A model generated the notes under the pieces. That model was not told the DNA's origin. It did no database searches and saw only the letters and a program-made list of their open reading frames with translations. From positions 1-7,996 of the IMG/VR virus record IMGVR_UViG_2609459791_000005: a stretch of 7,996 nt of DNA, one strand, 5' to 3'. This document shows, one piece after another, positions 1-7,996 of the stretch (its first letter is position 1; every line of letters begins with the position of its first letter). A program made the translations under genes and the position numbers. Source of the DNA: a virus. Its lineage: Duplodnaviria > Heunggongvirae > Uroviricota > Caudoviricetes.

Positions 1-222
1 ATGCAATCCATTAACTTCCGTACCGCGCGTGGCAACCTTTCTGAAGTGCTCAACAATGTTGAAGCCGGGGAAGAGGTTGAAATCACCCGCAGAGGCCGTG
101 AGCCAGCAGTAATTGTCAGCAAGGCTACTTTCGAAGCCTACAAAAAAGCGGCGCTGGATGCTGAATTTGCATCCCTGTTTGACACCCTGGACTCCACCAA
201 CAAGGAACTGGTTAACCGATAA
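1..222 (+). CDS. phd: Phd antitoxin (type II toxin-antitoxin, Phd/YefM family), P1 prevents-host-death protein
   Basis: 73-aa [76 protein letters not shown] matches my recollection of P1 Phd in sequence and length. Its stop overlaps the next ATG (TAATG at 220-224). The window begins at its start codon, so its promoter is not visible. Confidence 0.9.
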
Positions 223-602
223 TGAGGCATATATCACCGGAAGAACTTATTGCGCTTCATGATGCGAATATAAACCGCTACGGCGGCCTGCCGGGCATGT
301 CAGATCCGGGTAGGGCAGAGGCCATTATCGGGAGAGTTCAGGCCAGAGTTGCCTACGAAGAGATCACCGACCTTTTCGAAGTCTCCGCCACCTACCTGGT
401 GGCTACGGCGAGAGGGCATATATTCAATGATGCCAATAAGCGTACCGCGCTAAACAGTGCGCTGTTATTTCTACGCCGTAACGGGGTGCAGGTATTTGAT
501 TCACCTGAACTGGCAGACCTTACTGTAGGCGCTGCGACTGGCGAGATATCTGTATCTTCTGTCGCCGACACGTTACGTAGATTGTATGGTTCTGCGGAGT
601 AG
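222..602 (+). CDS. doc: Doc toxin (Fic-fold kinase, death on curing)
   Basis: 126-aa ORF directly coupled to phd. It contains the Fic-type motif HIFNDANKR (about 417-443). Sequence and length match recalled P1 Doc. Confidence 0.9.
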
Positions 603-606
603 ATTA

Positions 607-786
607 ATGGCACGCAAATACAACAAATTGTCCCGTGAAGCGTTAAAGATGCTTCTTGATGGCGTGAGTCGCCGCGAGGTAAAGCAATACCTGGTTGGTA
701 AGCAAATTGGAGCCAGGACTGCTATTGCTGTGTTATGCCGTCAGGAAATGGTTGTGCTTAAACAGAGAATGCCGGGCAGCAGATAA
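607..786 (+). CDS. small hypothetical protein with helix-turn-helix-like segment; possibly the first P1 post-doc gene by synteny
   Basis: ATG at 607 lies 7 nt after a GGAG (596-599) and just past the doc stop. The ORF track gives an in-frame upstream ATG at 586 that would overlap doc. The segment SREALKMLLDGVSRREVKQYL looks like an HTH. No family recognised from memory. Confidence 0.4.
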   Translation: MARKYNKLSREALKMLLDGVSRREVKQYLVGKQIGARTAIAVLCRQEMVVLKQRMPGSR

Positions 787-813: not shown

Positions 814-1857
814 GTGAAAGCCGTAATTACTCCCTTTGTACAAAAAGAGCTTGGCGTCGCCACATTCAAAGTGGATCAGGAAGTCAGAAAGCTGGTGGAG
901 GCTGGCCGTAAATTTATTATGGAGCCGGTGCCGCGTGAGTTAATCGAGCACATGGACGACGGCCTCGTTGTTTCCGAGCAAACTATGGCAACAAATGAGG
1001 CGTTGCAGCCGTTTTTTAACAGCGATGAACTGTTTCGCCGTATTGGTGGAATTGACGCGCTGGTGGCGTGGTTGCGCAGGAAAGAGGGGCAATGCCAGGC
1101 CGCAGATCGTAGCTGCTGTGACAACCATATTGTCCACGCAGAACGAGACAATAGCGCGGTGTTGTTGTGCTGGCATCACGATAACCATTACCGGATGCGT
1201 GGTTTTAATGAGCTGAAAGAAACGCTGCATAATAATCGCGTTAACTGGATACTGGATGTCGCCCGTCAGGAAATGGGGCTTTCAGATGGCCATGATTTAA
1301 GTATTCAGGAACTGTGCTGGTGGGCTTTCATGCGCAACATGATGCACCTGATGCCGGAAGAAGTTTGCCGTATATCAATAAATAAGATGAAAGCCGCAAC
1401 GCAGGATAGCGGACCTCTGAAAGAGGCGGATATTCGCCCGTATGACGATCGCGCTACAGCATATGTTCAGATGATGGAAGAACGCGCCGCGCCGATGCGT
1501 GCAAAAGTATGCCCTGTGGATGTTGACTCCGACCCTGGCATGGCGCATTTCAAAATACCAAAACTGCAATCGCTAAAATTACCTGAGTACATGGACTTTG
1601 TTGCTTCCCGTCCATGCTGTGGGTGTGGAGCGGCGGGAGCTGGCGCTCACATTACGCCTTATATCGTTCGTCATAGTCGATTATGCGCGCATGACATTTA
1701 CGCAATTCCTCTGTGCCAGTCATGCCAGCGTGATATTGAGCGTGACCGCGATAATTGGGAGAAGACGCACGGTAGGCTGGCGATGCATCAACGATTGTTC
1801 TTTGATTACGCGCTTGGAGTCGGCGCTATCACAAGTCACTCGTCGAGCGTTAGATAA
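814..1857 (+). CDS. Cys/His-rich protein with two HNH-like / DUF968-like zinc-motif units; possibly P1 PdcB by synteny
   Basis: 347-aa ORF with GTG start at 814 preceded by AAAGGTG. Motif units are [25 protein letters not shown] and [38 protein letters not shown]. Three Chi octamers lie inside the gene. The name is from recalled P1 gene order, not a search. Confidence 0.6.
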
Positions 1858-1858
1858 A

Positions 1859-1875
1859 ATTGCTCTAATGTATTG
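1859..1875 (+). promoter_or_regulatory. C1 repressor operator-like site upstream of lpa
   Basis: ATTGCTCTAATGTATTG matches 14 of 17 positions of the P1 C1 operator consensus ATTGCTCTAATAAATTT as I recall it. It overlaps the -35 of the candidate promoter below. Confidence 0.55.
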
Positions 1876-1903
1876 CTATTTCTTTAATCGAGGGTGTTAT
1901 ATT
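1873..1903 (+). promoter_or_regulatory. candidate sigma70 promoter for lpa (-35 TTGCTA, extended -10 TGtTATATT)
   Basis: -35-like TTGCTA at 1873-1878 and TG at 1895-1896 followed by TATATT at 1898-1903. The spacer is long (about 19 nt), so the exact elements are uncertain. Confidence 0.35.
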
Positions 1904-1945
1904 CCACGTTGATTAGTTGACATGGGCTAATCAGTAGGTGACAGG

Positions 1946-2398
1946 ATGTTACTTAACTGGCAGGGACGCCACTTCATGGAAATAAATCACTCACGAATAA
2001 CATCGTACGAGATTGCGGATTACATGATCCGCACTAAATCTCTTCTATCAGCGAAAGAACTCGCAGCAATTCTTGAAAAGGAATACCCGCATCTGGATGT
2101 CGATAAGCGCGATGTTTATCTGCGCTTAAAGGCTATCGCTGTGTCTAAGTATTCGTCTGTTTTGATTGATGACAGTACACGCCCACGTAGATTTCAGATC
2201 CACTCTCTGAATCCTGAATTCTTTCGCCGTAGCCGCGCTCCGCGCCGGTTTGATGAAAAACTCCAGAACGAACTCTATATGACGCAGGACGAAAAGGAAC
2301 GCCGGGAGCACCAGCCTTGGGTAATGGCGCGTCAACTTTTCAATAAGGTGGCCCGTCAGCACCGTCATTACGGTAATGCCACATCCGCACGTATCTGA
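1946..2398 (+). CDS. lpa: late promoter activator Lpa (P1 gene 10) candidate
   Basis: 150-aa ORF immediately upstream of pacA, preceded by AGGTG (1936-1940) 5 nt before the ATG and by a C1 operator-like site. Assignment is by position and known P1 gene order (gene 10 next to the pac operon); the protein sequence itself is not recalled. Confidence 0.6.
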   Translation: MLLNWQGRHFMEINHSRITSYEIADYMIRTKSLLSAKELAAILEKEYPHLDVDKRDVYLRLKAIAVSKYSSVLIDDSTRPRRFQIHSLNPEFFRRSRAPRRFDEKLQNELYMTQDEKERREHQPWVMARQLFNKVARQHRHYGNATSARI

Positions 2399-2408
2399 TT
2401 GATTGCTT

Positions 2409-2428
2409 GCCCGTTCCGGGCCTTTTGA
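2409..2428 (+). terminator. weak candidate intrinsic terminator after lpa
   Basis: GCCCG-TTC-CGGGC hairpin (2409-2421) followed by CTTTT. The stem is short, hence low confidence. Confidence 0.25.
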
Positions 2429-2458
2429 CATGTGACTTTCGTTACCCTCGCGTCAAAA
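2423..2458 (+). promoter_or_regulatory. candidate late-promoter / regulatory element upstream of pacA
   Basis: Near-palindromic TTGACATGTGAC (2425-2436) plus a flanking inverted repeat TTTTGAC(2423-2429)...GTCAAAA(2452-2458), about 50 bp upstream of the pacA start. The pac operon is known to be Lpa-dependent, but I cannot recall the late-promoter consensus with confidence. Confidence 0.25.
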
Positions 2459-2483
2459 AGAGTTTTTACGAAAGGAAGCATAA

Positions 2484-3677
2484 GTGACCTGGGACGATCA
2501 CAAGAAGAATTTTGCTCGCCTGGCGCGAGATGGTGGTTACACCATCGCACAGTATGCCGCCGAGTTTAATCTTAACCCTAATACTGCACGTCGTTATCTC
2601 CGTGCCTTCAAAGAAGACACCAGGACAGCGGACAGCCGCAAGCCAAATAAGCCAGTCAGGAAGCCACTAAAAAGCATGATCATTGATCACTCTAATGATC
2701 AACATGCAGGTGATCACATTGCGGCTGAAATAGCGGAAAAACAAAGGGTTAATGCCGTTGTCAGTGCCGCAGTCGAGAATGCGAAGCGCCAAAATAAGCG
2801 CATAAATGATCGTTCTGATGATCATGACGTGATCACCCGCGCCCACCGGACCTTACGTGATCGCCTGGAACGCGACACCCTGGATGATGATGGTGAACGC
2901 TTTGAATTCGAAGCTGGCGATTACCTGATAGATAACGTTGAAGCGCGGAAGGCCGCGCGCGCTATGTTGCGTCGGTCCGGGGCCGATGTTCTGGAAACCA
3001 CTCTTCTTGAAAAGTCTCTTTCTCATCTCCTTATGCTGGAGAACGCCAGGGATACGTGTATTCGCCTGGTGCAGGAAATGCGCGATCAGCAAAAAGACGA
3101 TGATGAAGGTACTCCGCCTGAATACCGTATCGCGAGCATGCTAAACAGCTGTTCCGCGCAGATAAGCAGCCTGATCAACACCATTTACAGCATCCGGAAT
3201 AACTATCGAAAAGAAAGCCTGGAGGCGGAAAAGCACGCTTTGTCTATGGGGCAAGCTGGCATTGTTAAGCTGGCATACGAACGAAAGCGTGAAAATAACT
3301 GGTCAGTGCTGGAAGCAGCTGAATTCATCGAGGCGCATGGCGGGAAAGTGCCGCCCCTGATGCTGGAGCAAATCAAAGCCGATCTGCGTGCTCTTAAGAC
3401 CAATACCGATGATGAGGAAAGGCAAACAGCCGTTGGTGGCCCTTCTCTTGAAGATCTGGACAAAGTTGCGCGAGAACGGGCCGCCAACCGCCGCGCCGAT
3501 GCCGCATTGTGGATTGAGCAGCGTAGGGAAGAAATCGCCGATATCGTTGATACAGGCGGTTATGGAGATGTTGATACTGAAGGTGTATCAAACGACCCAT
3601 GGCTGGAACAAGACCTGGACGAAGACGAGGAGGAAGACGAAGAAGTTACCCGCAAGCTATACGGGGATGATGATTAA
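2484..3677 (+). CDS. pacA: terminase small subunit / pac-recognition protein PacA
   Basis: 397-aa ORF with GTG start 5 nt after AAAGGAAG. N-terminus [42 protein letters not shown] is HTH-like, and the C-terminal tail is acidic ([13 protein letters not shown]). The pac hexamer clusters lie inside the gene. Length matches recalled P1 PacA. Confidence 0.9.
2677..2835 (+). other. P1-type pac packaging site: four TGATCA hexamers, spacer, then three TGATC(A/G) hexamers, each carrying a Dam GATC
   Basis: TGATCA at 2677-2682, 2684-2689, 2696-2701 and 2711-2716. TGATCG at 2807-2812, TGATCA at 2819-2824 and 2830-2835. This matches the published P1 pac architecture of 4+3 hexanucleotide elements flanking the cleavage region. 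Confidence 0.85.
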
Positions 3678-4531
3678 TGGCCAGAAGTTGCGTAACGGAT
3701 CCACGTTGGCGCGAGCTGGTGGCGCTATATCGTTATGACTGGATTGCGGCCGCTGATGTTTTGTTCGGCAAAACACCTACCTGGCAGCAGGATCTGATTA
3801 TTGAGTCTGTGCAGGAACAGGGTAGCAAGACATCTGTTTCGTCTGGTCACGGTACCGGGAAATCAGACATGACTTCTATCATGATCATGTTGTTCATAAT
3901 CATGTATCCCGGTGCCCGAGCCATTATCGTTGCGAACAAAATTCAGCAGGTAATGACCGGTATATTCAAGTACATCAAGATAAACTGGGCTACTGCCACC
4001 AGCCGTTTCCCATGGCTTGCTGATTATTTTGTTCTGACAGAAACCGCTTTCTATGAGGTTACTGGTAAAGGTGTATGGACTGTAGTACCGAAGGGCTTTC
4101 GTCTGGGAAGTGAAGAAGCTCTCGCCGGTGAACACGCAGATCATCTTCTGTATATTATCGATGAAGCCTCCGGTGTCAGTGATAGAGCTTTCGGTATCAT
4201 CACCGGTGCTCTTACCGGACAGGATAACCGCATCTTATTACTGTCACAGCCTACACGCCCAAGCCAACGTCTAAGGAGGCTGCCAATATGGCTACTATCC
4301 CTACCCCAACTCATCCTGAATTTATCTGCCGCTTTTACTCCTGCCAAAAACGTCACTATCACTTCGTTATTGCACCAACAGAAGATGAGGCCCGCTCTCA
4401 GCTTCCTGACGCCCCATGTATTTTCTCTGCCCGTTTTTCCACTGATTCACGCAATTCTCTCAGTTACTGGTGCCTCCCTGTTAACGCTTCTGCTCAGGAG
4501 GGACTATGAGAACGTCATTAGTCACCCGTGA
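3677..4531 (+). CDS. pacB: terminase large subunit PacB, N-terminal ATPase portion only (truncated; 3' tail of the ORF is not protein-like)
   Basis: Start overlaps the pacA stop (TAATG at 3675-3679). Walker A GHGTGKS at about 3845-3865 and Walker [10 protein letters not shown] at about 4145-4171. Terminase-like sequence runs to QPTRPS (about 4264); the frame then reads a Leu/Ser/Pro-rich string to the stop at 4531. Confidence 0.6.
4288..4509 (+). CDS. icd: Icd-like small protein (host cell-division inhibitor family of immI-type antirepressor operons)
   Basis: 73-aa ORF preceded by TAAGGAGG (4270-4277). Its stop overlaps the next ATG as ATGA (4506-4509). The segment [28 protein letters not shown] resembles Icd-like proteins; length matches recalled P1 Icd (73 aa). 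Confidence 0.5.
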
Positions 4532-5624
4532 AGAGATGATCGAGGCAATTGAACAGCACATTGCCTGTATCAGTACCAGGGATATACCAGGCGTTATTGC
4601 CAACTACTTCATGATCACCAAACAACTTTACCGGAGAAAGGACAAGAACTCGGTTCACCGTATCCTGTTGTCTGATATCCGCGAATACCTGCTCGAACAG
4701 GGTCATCTGAATTACGCAACCGTCGCAGCCGAAGCACGCAAGGAGGCACACAGAATGAAAGCAACTAACGTTAAATCAGAAAAAATTCATGCACCTTCAG
4801 TTCAGGAATCGGAGCTGGTGGTTGTTCAGAATCAGTCTGATGAAATTCCCGTTCTGGAATGGCAGGGAGCGCGTGTAGTGACAACCGAGACTCTTGCTAG
4901 AGGGTATGGGACAGAAACAATCCGTATTCGCCAAAATCATCATGAGAACAAAGTACGCTTTGTTGAAGGGAAGCACTTTTTCAAAGTTGAAGGAGAATCA
5001 TTGCGCGAGTTGAAGCACAGAGTAGCTTTAAACTACTCTGTAAAAATTGCTCGCAATGTTCGCTCACTCACCCTCTGGACAGAACGCGGCGCAGCCCGCC
5101 ACGCTAAAATGCTCGAAACCGATCAGGCATGGGCATTCTTTGAAAAACTGGAAGACAGCTACTTCCGACAAAAAGAACAGCAACCGGTCGCAATCCCCCA
5201 GACGATTCCAGAAGCTCTGCGCCTGGCTGCCGAGTTAGCTGAACAAAAGCAACTTCTGGAACAGAAAGCCCACCAGCTAAATCAGCAGCTGGTGGCCGCC
5301 GCTTCTAAAGTCGATTTTGCCGACCGGGTATCAGTAGCTAAAGGGATCCTGATTGGGAATTTTGCAAAGGTCGTTGGACTTAAACAAAATGCGCTGTTTG
5401 CCTGGTTACGGGAGAACGGCATTCTGATAGCGTCCGGAGGCCGTAAAAATGTACCGTTCCAGCAGTACATCAACGCGGGGTATTTCACGGTGAAAGAAGT
5501 GGTGCTGGATGATGAAGATGGCTACCAGATACGGTTGACGCCTCAATTAACGGGTAAAGGCCAGCAGTGGTTGACGCGTAAACTGCTCGATGCTGGTTTG
5601 TTAAAACCGGTGGCGGCTGAATAA
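4506..5624 (+). CDS. ant: phage antirepressor Ant (ORF6N-like domain plus KilAC-like C-terminal domain); nested in-frame second start at 4755 (Ant2-like)
   Basis: 372-aa ORF with AGGAGG at 4495-4500. ORF6N-like stretch [47 protein letters not shown] and KilAC-like stretch [58 protein letters not shown]. An internal in-frame ATG at 4755 follows AGGAGG at 4741-4746. Confidence 0.7.
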
Positions 5625-5631
5625 TGGAAGA

Positions 5632-5661
5632 ATGCCCGGTTGATGCCGGGCATAATTTATT
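5632..5661. terminator. bidirectional intrinsic terminator between convergent ant and c1
   Basis: Perfect 8-bp stem ATGCCCGG / CCGGGCAT (5632-5639 and 5646-5653) with 6-nt loop, T-rich on both flanks. It sits 8 nt after the ant stop and directly after the c1 stop. Confidence 0.6.
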
Positions 5662-6508
5662 GCGCGCTTTCGGGGTTGTCGTTTACTGGCTGCCCCTTCT
5701 TGGTTTTACGGCTGCGCGTAACTGATGCGGCTGACTTAACCTTTTTCTCTTCGCGAGTGATGGCAATTTGTTTTTTTACATTTTCAATATCTGCCAGGCG
5801 ATATATTTTTGCTTGCGGCCAGCGGCCGCAGATGATCGGTTCTATGGAGTCATAAAGGCTAAATTTTGCTTTTTCGAATTCACCGTTGATGATAATTCCA
5901 TCACGGAGAGTTTCATCGCAGATAAACACGCCACACAGTGGCACATGGTAACTAACTGATTTACCATCATTGTAGTTAGGGCTACTGGAAATGTAGTGGA
6001 CGCGCAGCATTGTTTCGCTAAAGCCGTGTACGCGCATACGGAATTTTTCATCCTCCGGGTACTGCTTCATTAGCTCTTTTGTTGCTTCCAGGTTCTCTAT
6101 GTATTTCGCACTGTGCTCATTGATCCCCGCGCTTTTTTGGATGCGAATGTCCTTATCAATCAGATGAATAATGCGGCCAGCGGTCATGTTGACGCTGTTC
6201 ACAGCTTCTGTCTGATAAGTTGTAACCTTACGCACACCGCGAAGGATGTTAGGCACTGGATATAAAATAGTCTTTGGGATATTGAGGTCTGGGTACTGTT
6301 CCAGTTCCCGCGCCATTAAAGTCCATTTATCAATTTCAGCCTGAATGCTGTCAGTTTCTTTGAACGGTAGAACGACAACCGGGCGTACAGGACGACCGTC
6401 GCTGGCTGTATCAACGTGTTGGGCGCGTGCAACAGCTTTTTTTAGAAAGAGATCCCTGAAGCTGACGAACTCCTGGTACAGTTGTTCGCCGTAGACATAA
6501 TTTATCAT
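5657..6508 (-). CDS. c1: C1 master repressor of lysogeny (immC)
   Basis: 283-aa ORF MINYVYGEQLYQEFVSFRDLFLKK... matches recalled P1 C1 in sequence and length. Strong SD GGAGGAGG precedes the ATG on the minus strand. Confidence 0.9.
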   Translation of the reverse strand: MINYVYGEQLYQEFVSFRDLFLKKAVARAQHVDTASDGRPVRPVVVLPFKETDSIQAEIDKWTLMARELEQYPDLNIPKTILYPVPNILRGVRKVTTYQTEAVNSVNMTAGRIIHLIDKDIRIQKSAGINEHSAKYIENLEATKELMKQYPEDEKFRMRVHGFSETMLRVHYISSSPNYNDGKSVSYHVPLCGVFICDETLRDGIIINGEFEKAKFSLYDSIEPIICGRWPQAKIYRLADIENVKKQIAITREEKKVKSAASVTRSRKTKKGQPVNDNPESAQ

Positions 6509-6602
6509 TGATCCTCCTCCAGAATTGACATGGTCAATAACGCCCGGCTGAGAAAACCGGTCATTACTGACCTATATTATAGAGGGATCAAACGAAAATA
6601 AT

Positions 6603-6619
6603 AGATTTATTAGTGCATT
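6603..6619 (-). promoter_or_regulatory. C1 operator-like site (Op99e-like) overlapping the c1 promoter, between coi and c1
   Basis: Minus strand reads AATGCACTAATAAATCT, 14 of 17 matches to ATTGCTCTAATAAATTT. A TATAAT hexamer lies downstream on the minus strand at plus coordinates 6576-6581, consistent with an autoregulated promoter. Confidence 0.5.
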
Positions 6620-6828
6620 TATTGTGAGTCTAACTGGTTAGTTGCCATGAGATATTCGATTGTGTCAGTGAGGTCATCCAGGTCGTCTTGGGTGATGCGG
6701 TACTCCTGATTGGATATCTTTGAGTAGTGTTCAGCAATGGCGCGGGCTGCGTCGGTTTCGGCAGGGTCTACAGATAAAGCGTTAGAGCAATGTCTAACGT
6801 CGTCGATGGTTGGTTGAATGAAAGCCAT
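6619..6828 (-). CDS. coi: Coi, C1 inactivator
   Basis: 69-aa acidic ORF immediately upstream of c1 on the same strand. Position and length match recalled P1 coi. Confidence 0.8.
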   Translation of the reverse strand: MAFIQPTIDDVRHCSNALSVDPAETDAARAIAEHYSKISNQEYRITQDDLDDLTDTIEYLMATNQLDSQ

Positions 6829-6947
6829 AATTATGCCTCACTGTATTGACAACACAGAGCCTGAAGCTCTGACCTACTGTTTCACCCATGATCCATGCTG
6901 GGGTAATCTAACAACGTTGCGCTGTGTGTAAGATGAGCAATGCATAG

Positions 6948-7996
<1,049 letters not shown>

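Follow-up and report, generated by a model that had tools for sequence, protein, structure and literature searches.

A probable deletion scar places an accessory P1-type icd-ant cassette behind a truncated pacB

Described antirepressor cassettes and the undeleted relatives

In P1, C1 represses lpa and Lpa activates the late promoters, while Ant antagonises C1 and c4 represses the synthesis of Ant (PMC8546580). Icd is a cell-division inhibitor, and the expression of ant apparently needs the expression of icd (PMC8201110). Both icd and ant lie in the immI region of P1 and P7, which has the order Op51/P51-a1 b1-c4-a2 b2-icd-ant1/ant2. The cassette described here shares with immI a 73-codon icd-like ORF that overlaps ant, an ANT/KilAC domain and an icd ribosome-binding site with a b2-type c4 target. 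In contrast to immI, it has no operator, promoter, a1/b1, c4 or a2, it lies between pacB and c1 and not beside sim/kilA/repL, and it encodes a single 372-aa Ant with an ORF6N domain. In the undeleted ancestor of this locus, the order and spacing of operator, a1/b1, c4 and a2/b2 would have been those of immI.

More closely related is the accessory ant cassette of RCS47 and pTZ20_1P (PMC6906374), in which ant is "inserted between pacB and c1, as in RCS47" (Venturini et al. 2019, PMC6906374). RCS47 possesses a canonical immI (c4, icd, ant1/ant2, kilA, repL; 52.9-56.1 kb) besides the pacB-c1 cassette, and thus the latter is an accessory module. Our locus has the same position and the same genes. 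However, the described members and those in the databases have a full-length pacB and a c4 spacer of ~340 bp, whereas the lineage studied here lacks 1,212 bp.

A third system with similarities is isrK-orf45-anrP of Salmonella Gifsy-1 (Hershko-Shalev et al. 2016, PMC4825925), for which translational coupling of the small ORF and the antirepressor is documented. The ancestral spacer of our locus would likewise have contained an Rfam isrK element with a Rho-independent terminator, and the ancestral locus likewise a processed small RNA region, a small ORF and a coupled antirepressor. Unlike in Gifsy-1, the isrK-like element is deleted, the small ORF is icd-like (73 aa) and not orf45, and no antQ target is in view at the locus. 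Finally, the P1 remnant of plasmid pRHB31-C22_2 resembles our locus in being an IS5-associated phd-doc-pdcA-pdcB-lpa-pacA-pacB-c1-coi block on a plasmid without phage structural genes. There, however, c1 comes directly after a full pacB as in P1, with no icd-ant, whereas our locus has the cassette and the deletion.

For the undeleted state, about 240-270 related P1-like plasmids and phage RCS47 were compared. In these relatives, the spacer between pacB and icd contains, in this order, an operator-like site, an isrK-family RNA with a terminator, a C4 RNA and the icd leader. The operator-like site, TTTGCTCTAATAAATTG, has two mismatches to the C1 operator consensus and lies 4 nt past the pacB stop; a similar site is found ~200 nt upstream of c4 in the canonical immI of RCS47. 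The isrK-family RNA (RF01394) scored 58-61 bits (60.8 in the spacer that the window lacks) and has an intrinsic terminator at its end (4913-4929 of the pTX376-2 comparison sequence). C4 (RF01695) reached 75-77 bits (75.9 in that spacer) at a gathering score of 45; the C4 of P1 has 68.8 bits in Rfam. No terminator was found between the pacB stop and the cassette operator in the undeleted relatives, so that a degree of late read-through into the leader may already have existed in the ancestor. In some of the undeleted relatives, e. g. pTX376-2, ant is cut short by a premature stop.

The unpaired parts of c4 pair with a2 and b2 downstream and with a1 and b1 upstream, which is the pairing scheme of P1 immI, and b2 lies over the Shine-Dalgarno sequence of icd. 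These contacts were obtained from a search for contiguous complementarity; whole-molecule RNAduplex was uninformative, as it melts everything. Three alleles were distinguished: allele A (pTX376-2 type) with a' AGGCCAA and b' CCUUGGAC (also given as CCUUGGACG), allele B (RCS47, pXJW9B263-2) with a' GUCUCAA and b' CCUUUGAC, and allele C (p1493-4) with a' GUUCCAA and b' CCUUUUGC. Across the three alleles, a'/a1/a2 and b'/b1/b2 show full compensatory covariation, which argues for a working antisense system. This is strong comparative evidence that c4 functions in the relatives and sets the specificity there.

Organisation of the window and the sequence upstream of icd

The window, i. e. the whole stretch of 7,996 nt that was analysed, is identified by its ORF map and by annotated records as a P1-type "immC-side" block (Table 1). 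The length of lpa is that of P1 lpa, and c1 has a match to PF27008, obtained on the identical gene. In the P1 annotation Oc1a/b adjoins the end of coi. Homology to P1 stops at 6947, and the IS5-family element is the right edge of the P1 block; the imcA of RCS47 carries the same IS5 insertion.

Table 1. Positions of genes and sites in the window and the evidence for each.
Feature	Position	Strand	Evidence and remarks
phd	1-222		ORF map, annotated records
doc	222-602		ORF map, annotated records
pdcA	586-786		ORF map, annotated records
pdcB	814-1857		ORF map, annotated records
Olpa (Op94), C1 operator	1859-1875	+	17/17 to annotated P1 Olpa; operator scan
Plpa	1873-1900		27/28 to P1; -35 overlapped by Olpa
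lpa, late promoter activator, intact, 150 aa	1946-2398	+	PF25716 BPP1_LPA, E=3e-57
LPpac, Lpa-dependent late promoter (-22 box and -10)	2430-2448	+	31/31 to annotated P1 region
pacA, intact, 397 aa	2484-3677	+	ORF list, P1 annotation
PpacB counterpart (sigma-70 promoter merely predicted in P1), 3' end of pacA	3538-3566		26/29
pacB, genuine 5' part, codons 1-196 of 494	3677-4264	+	DNA colinear with pTX376-2 and RCS47
Deletion junction, 1,212 bp lost	4264/4265		1-nt C microhomology; BLAST, base-by-base comparison
Remnant of native icd leader, 23 nt	4265-4287	+	Complementarity analysis against allele-A c4
b2, c4 target, CGTCTAAGG (also given as CGUCUAAGG)	4268-4276	+	
icd Shine-Dalgarno AAGGAGG	4273-4279	+	Overlaps b2
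PacB' fusion ORF, out-of-frame tail of 88 codons	4265-4531	+	Stop at 4529-4531
icd-like small ORF, 73 aa	4288-4509	+	
ant, antirepressor homologue, intact, 372 aa	4506-5624	+	ORF6N and ANT/KilAC
GC-rich hairpin between convergent ant and c1	5632-5653	+	9 pairs, 6 GC
c1 repressor, intact, 283 aa	5657-6508	-	ORF; annotated C1 in relatives and P1
C1-operator-like site, position of P1 Oc1ab, upstream of c1	6603-6619	-	Operator scan
coi	6619-6828	-	ORF map, annotated records
IS5-family element (ISKpn26/IS5D-like), in imcA	~6945-7996	+	DDE_Tnp_1 ORF

A preliminary description of this DNA had noted that the cassette appears to have neither an antisense RNA nor an operator of its own, and that the 150 bp upstream of icd are pacB coding sequence. 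Both statements agree with our results. Positions 4141-4264 are pacB sequence with 99-100% identity to the pacB of pTX376-2 and RCS47; the last 23 nt belong to the native icd leader, and the pacB' ORF runs through the whole stretch. A scan with the C1 operator consensus ATTGCTCTAATAAATTT, in which up to three mismatches were allowed, gave matches in the window solely at Olpa and at the site in the c1/coi region, i. e. none in 1876-6602. Rfam models, among them C4 (RF01695), c4-a1b1 and isrK (RF01394), had zero matches in the window, be it with gathering thresholds or with E<=5. When the window was searched for a complement of the icd ribosome-binding site, as a c4-like RNA would contain, just the ribosome-binding site itself was found. 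On the strength of the Rfam and complement searches, we rejected the idea that the window conceals an overlooked or degenerate c4, or some other RNA.

The preliminary description had also seen no terminator between pacA and the hairpin at 5632. Indeed, no convincing one was found on the + strand in this interval; the candidate at 4797-4818 is weak, with three GC pairs and a poor T tail. From phd onward the + strand contains weak candidates alone. The hairpin at 5632-5653 is the top terminator-like match on the + strand of the window and likely ends the icd-ant unit as its terminator. Near 4129-4200, eight sigma-70-like matches were observed at 9.2 expected from shuffled sequence; the hexamer pairs at 4129-4158 and 4173-4200 weakly resemble a promoter. 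That the junction itself had generated a promoter was rejected, since these matches sit in unaltered pacB and occur at background frequency. A second late promoter near icd was rejected as well, because the LPpac motif occurs in the window only once. LPpac is the sole recognisable regulated promoter upstream of icd-ant on the + strand. Thus the window sequence contains no promoter or operator belonging to the cassette, no c4-like RNA and no convincing terminator between pacB and icd.

Pfam returned no domain for PacB or Icd. Icd is 98.6% identical to the Icd of the pTX376-2 cassette, 79% to the canonical one of RCS47 and 72% to that of P1, and in relatives the gene is annotated as 'host cell division inhibitor Icd-like'. 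The Ant protein contains PF10543 (E=2e-19) and PF03374 (E=1e-30) and is 88% identical to the cassette Ant of RCS47, but only 52-55% to Ant1 of P1 and RCS47. The stop of icd overlaps the start of ant (ATGA, 4506-4509), and translational coupling of the two is expected by analogy with immI and IsrK-orf45-AnrP. That both ORFs are intact is compatible with kept function or with a recent deletion. Of the c4 targets, only the allele-A b2 and the Shine-Dalgarno sequence remain, and a2 is deleted. The retained segment is a perfect complement of the allele-A c4 loop with one G-U pair, whereas the canonical c4 of P1 and RCS47 and the c4 of alleles B and C do not match it. The predicted unpaired probabilities from the Shine-Dalgarno sequence to the ATG were nearly equal in the native and in the deleted context and gave no discrimination.

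The deletion, its carriers and their context

The window is colinear with pTX376-2 and RCS47 apart from a clean 1,212-bp gap at the junction. The missing part corresponds to positions 3866-5077 of the pTX376-2 comparison sequence, and the closest relatives in the databases align with the query as two separate blocks, over a span ~1.2 kb longer than that of the window. Left and right of the gap, the DNA identity to the relatives is 94-99%. Lost from pacB are 897 bp at its 3' end, and from the ~338-bp pacB-icd spacer 315 bp. The controls are therefore missing upstream of icd because they were removed together with part of pacB. A single deletion with a 1-nt microhomology is the signature of an accident.

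The preliminary description took pacB for an intact gene and the layout for the native one, which is not the case: the PacB-like ORF (3677-4531) encodes 284 aa instead of the 494 aa of P1 PacB. Residues 1-196 are 100% identical to PacB of RCS47 and 82% to that of P1. There the homology ends, and the 88-aa tail has no similarity to PacB. The C-terminal 298 residues, presumably the nuclease half of the large terminase, are absent from the window. With LPpac and an intact pacA present but no intact 494-aa pacB, the functional pac operon is gone and the element is unable to package DNA. The frame of the tail crosses the icd ribosome-binding site, the whole of icd and the start of ant, and ribosomes translating it would cross the start sites of both genes.

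Sixteen contigs encode exactly the 284-aa fusion protein; their sources are metagenome assemblies of the ENA, Logan and a single NCBI genome. They stem from separate projects and were built with different assemblers (SPAdes-style NODE, MEGAHIT-style k141, Logan unitigs and NCBI WGS). One of them, GCA_000704645.1 JNRK01000040.1, matches the window along its entire 7,996 bases with 100% identity, and the others differ from the window by at most two SNPs. Left of IS5 two different contexts occur, and hence the deletion is older than at least one rearrangement. The deletion lineage is real, clonal and naturally circulating. The exact junction was found zero times in PLSDB, 5,426 complete E. coli genomes, the GTDB representatives, IMG/VR and the JGI metagenomes. 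In PLSDB, 274 plasmids contain at least 80% of the control region contiguous with icd, and 0/274 have the junction of the window.

In the longer carrier contigs, the phd-to-coi block lies between two IS5-family copies with ~92-94% mutual identity. On one contig the left-hand neighbour is the ttrBCA-metQ cluster, which in E. coli is found mostly on plasmids; in another both flanks are 99.6-99.96% identical to the IncFIA/FIB plasmid pRHB31-C22_2 (CP057248.1). The carrier contigs of 15-19 kb contain no phage structural genes and no c4 but IS5, ttr/metQ, Tn3 and IncF-like DNA instead; beyond these contigs, a complete P1-like element or a cognate c4 could be present in the same cell. Similarly, the complete pRHB31-C22_2 carries a P1 remnant from phd to coi together with IS5 and cre, and neither phage structural genes nor a C4 RNA were found on the whole plasmid. 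The simplest reading is therefore that a non-phage, IncF-type plasmid carries the element as a P1 remnant bracketed by IS5, probably kept there for the phd-doc addiction module. Since the element looks like a remnant and has no functional pac operon, a 'late phase' is probably meaningless for it alone.

Expression of the cassette and alternative readings

Most likely, a P1-like element has degraded and the region is the scar of a deletion within it. According to this explanation, an intact pacB and c1 flanked a second, accessory module of the immI type in the ancestor, with the order C1-operator-like site, IsrK-family leader (a1/b1 and terminator), c4 (a', b'), a2/b2, icd and ant. One event of illegitimate recombination at the 1-nt microhomology removed the 1,212 bp and with them all controls of the cassette except b2 and the icd ribosome-binding site. 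Now icd-ant would be promoterless and independent of c4, and its only route of transcription would be as the distal end of a pacA-pacB' message starting at LPpac or at weak cryptic promoters.

Loss of c4 is destabilising in P1 if the promoter is kept. In the window, c1 is intact and lpa lies behind an intact C1 operator; in the P1 record, the overlap of Olpa with the -35 of Plpa keeps lpa off when C1 is present. The cassette should therefore be essentially silent at rest, which would explain why the loss of c4 is tolerated here. The predicted PpacB in the 3' end of pacA (26/29) could, however, give low constitutive expression. Going by the P1 annotation, icd-ant would be silent under C1 and expressed by read-through from LPpac. 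If C1 failed, or if a superinfecting P1-type phage supplied Lpa, a pacA-pacB'-icd-ant message reaching to the hairpin at 5632 would be made. The Ant paralogue of the window would, by analogy, act on C1. A positive loop could then follow, in which Ant blocks C1, lpa is released, LPpac becomes active and more Ant is made, with Icd alongside.

The preliminary description had proposed just such expression by read-through. The cassette has no promoter of its own, it is continuous with pacA-pacB', and LPpac is identical to its P1 counterpart at 31/31 positions. This part of the proposal is in agreement with our analysis, but a native 'wiring' is not supported. The family-typical state, a full set of immI-style controls (274 plasmids, RCS47), speaks against a design that ties the synthesis of Ant to late or packaging transcription. 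Hence the earlier hypothesis was right on connectivity and wrong on meaning.

Four other readings were considered, and all are rated well below the deletion-scar explanation. The first is a constitutive leak, i. e. low expression of icd-ant that starts at cryptic sigma-70 promoters within pacA/pacB' or reads through from Pphd, and that is tolerated as no lytic functions are left in the remnant that could be derepressed. Operator, IsrK terminator, c4 and a2, and with them all cis-repression, are lost; the + strand from phd onward has no terminator save the weak matches; and, besides the two weak hexamer pairs in pacB', a PpacB counterpart exists with 26/29 identical positions. However, the promoter-like matches are at background level, and PpacB is only predicted in the P1 record, with its hexamers partly changed in the window. 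Moreover, with Icd inhibiting cell division (PMC8201110), selection against such a leak would be expected, yet the icd ORF is intact. We regard this reading as unlikely.

A second possibility is control in trans, in which a cognate c4 from elsewhere in the cell, e. g. from a co-resident allele-A P1-like phage-plasmid, represses icd via b2. The c4 of P1 acts in trans (PMC8546580), P1-like plasmids with allele A are common in E. coli, and the surviving b2 and Shine-Dalgarno sequence (4268-4279) are complementary to the allele-A c4 loop. On the other hand, a2 is lost, and the covariation indicates selection on both the a and the b contacts. Of the c4 variants compared, those of canonical P1/RCS47, allele B and allele C mismatch the retained b2. 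Neither the carrier contigs (15-19 kb) nor the complete IncF plasmid used as a model contain a c4, and incompatibility may prevent two plasmids of the same type from residing together. Trans control therefore seems to us distinctly improbable.

Slightly less credible again is an adaptive rewiring, according to which the cassette is meant to be without c4 and operator and is co-transcribed with pac so that late Ant locks in lytic growth. It would fit the continuity of the cassette with pacA-pacB' without a terminator between them, the perfect conservation of LPpac and the intact icd and ant. The undeleted relatives, too, have no terminator from the pacB stop to the cassette operator, and the deletion lineage occurs in several samples and has outlived at least one rearrangement of its flanks. 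Yet the same event destroyed pacB, so that no packaging function is left to coordinate with. Furthermore, 274 relatives retain the full control region and none has the junction, the contexts observed are IS5-bracketed remnants beside non-phage plasmid DNA, and the deletion itself bears the mark of an accident. Finally, that the deletion is an artefact of assembly or sequencing is next to impossible: the junction is indeed in none of the complete plasmid and genome collections searched, but the identical fusion ORF stands on 16 contigs from different projects and assemblers, with 0-2 SNPs and two left contexts.

With the deletion scar as the preferred explanation, one may ask whether the deletion created a working c4-blind sensor, in which Lpa from a superinfecting or co-resident P1-type phage, or a stochastic loss of C1, fires LPpac. 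We give this only a slim chance. If it were true, Icd and Ant would be made and Ant would feed back on C1, resulting in a self-reinforcing switch that could induce a co-resident P1-like prophage or stop the infected cell from dividing. In that case the remnant would be a phage-responsive module and not junk.

The value of these findings is mostly corrective. The odd layout was probably left by a single deletion in a defective prophage remnant, through ordinary decay, and does not warrant the assumption of a novel mode of antirepressor control. The cassette is most suitably classed as a degenerate form, produced by deletion, of the known accessory icd-ant copy of the P1 immI type. At the same time, the deletion lineage would provide a natural 'c4-less, promoter-less' icd-ant construct behind an Lpa-dependent promoter. 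For the family as a whole, the comparison indicates that many P1-like phage-plasmids possess a second, accessory immI-like module with a hybrid IsrK/c4 leader. Its at least three specificity alleles with co-varying a and b contacts may serve as a natural dataset on antisense-RNA heteroimmunity.

Leader alleles and decay of the accessory cassette

Among the immI-like leaders of P1-like plasmids, accessory and canonical alike, at least three specificity alleles were distinguished, and the a'/b' loops of c4 co-vary perfectly with all four targets, a1, b1, a2 and b2. The a1/b1 segment of the relatives' leaders was matched by Rfam isrK (58-61 bits), with no call for c4-a1b1. This links P1 immI-type control to the IsrK-orf45-AnrP system of Salmonella Gifsy-1.

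Directly 3' of the icd Shine-Dalgarno, the window carries GAGGCTGCC, a segment conserved in the leaders of every allele. It can form 9 bp, including 2 G-U pairs, with the stretch GGUAGUCUC in the c4 of allele B. This complementarity is probably due to chance, or else would represent a conserved secondary contact.

The accessory ant frame of pTX376-2, an O157:H7 plasmid, is interrupted at codon 257 by a premature stop, and its annotation covers no more than a 110-aa fragment. Independent decay of the accessory cassette is therefore seen in other lineages as well.

Coordinates of the features discussed
Feature	Sequence	Positions
Leader region compared	pTX376-2 (L001)	4766-5100
Leader region compared	phage RCS47 (L002)	4766-5121
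Leader region compared	relative L014	1500-1860
Leader region compared	relative L015	1250-1516
Leader stretch with GAGGCTGCC	window	4268-4284
Accessory ant frame	pTX376-2	5319-6440
Oc1ab-like operator	window	6603-6619
Oc1d/Oc1e operators	pTX376-2	7879-7895, 7962-7978
IS5 insertion in imcA	window	6945-7016
IS5-family copy	window	6945-7996
IS5-family copies	carrier contig L003	568-1768, 8812-10014
IS5-family copies	carrier contig L004	5065-6265, 13269-14396
ttrBCA-MetQ/NlpA segment	carrier contig L004	1-5060

IS5 and the phd-to-coi block

The IS5 insertion in imcA, which the window has in common with RCS47, cuts coi-c1 off from promoter P1coi and operators Oc1d/Oc1e still found in pTX376-2. In the window the proximal Oc1ab-like site is the sole operator left to c1.

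Two IS5-family copies, whose mutual identity is merely about 92-94%, flank the entire phd-to-coi block. Left of the upstream copy the two carrier contigs differ (ttrBCA-metQ versus IncF plasmid sequence), and the IS5-phd gap is longer by about 40 bases in L003. This arrangement suggests that the block was relocated via IS5.

P1 remnants and neighbouring DNA

In L004 the P1 block is adjoined by a tetrathionate reductase cluster, ttrBCA, and a gene for a MetQ/NlpA lipoprotein. Identical segments in complete E. coli genomes are plasmid-borne in 26 of 35 places.

On CP057248.1, a complete IncFIA/FIB plasmid, lies a remnant of P1 (phd, doc, pdcA, pdcB, lpa, pacA, pacB, c1, coi, IS5, dms operon, IS5, cra, cre), in which metabolic cargo sits between IS5 copies; phage structural genes are absent from the whole plasmid. 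Non-phage plasmids thus retain P1 immC/addiction blocks.
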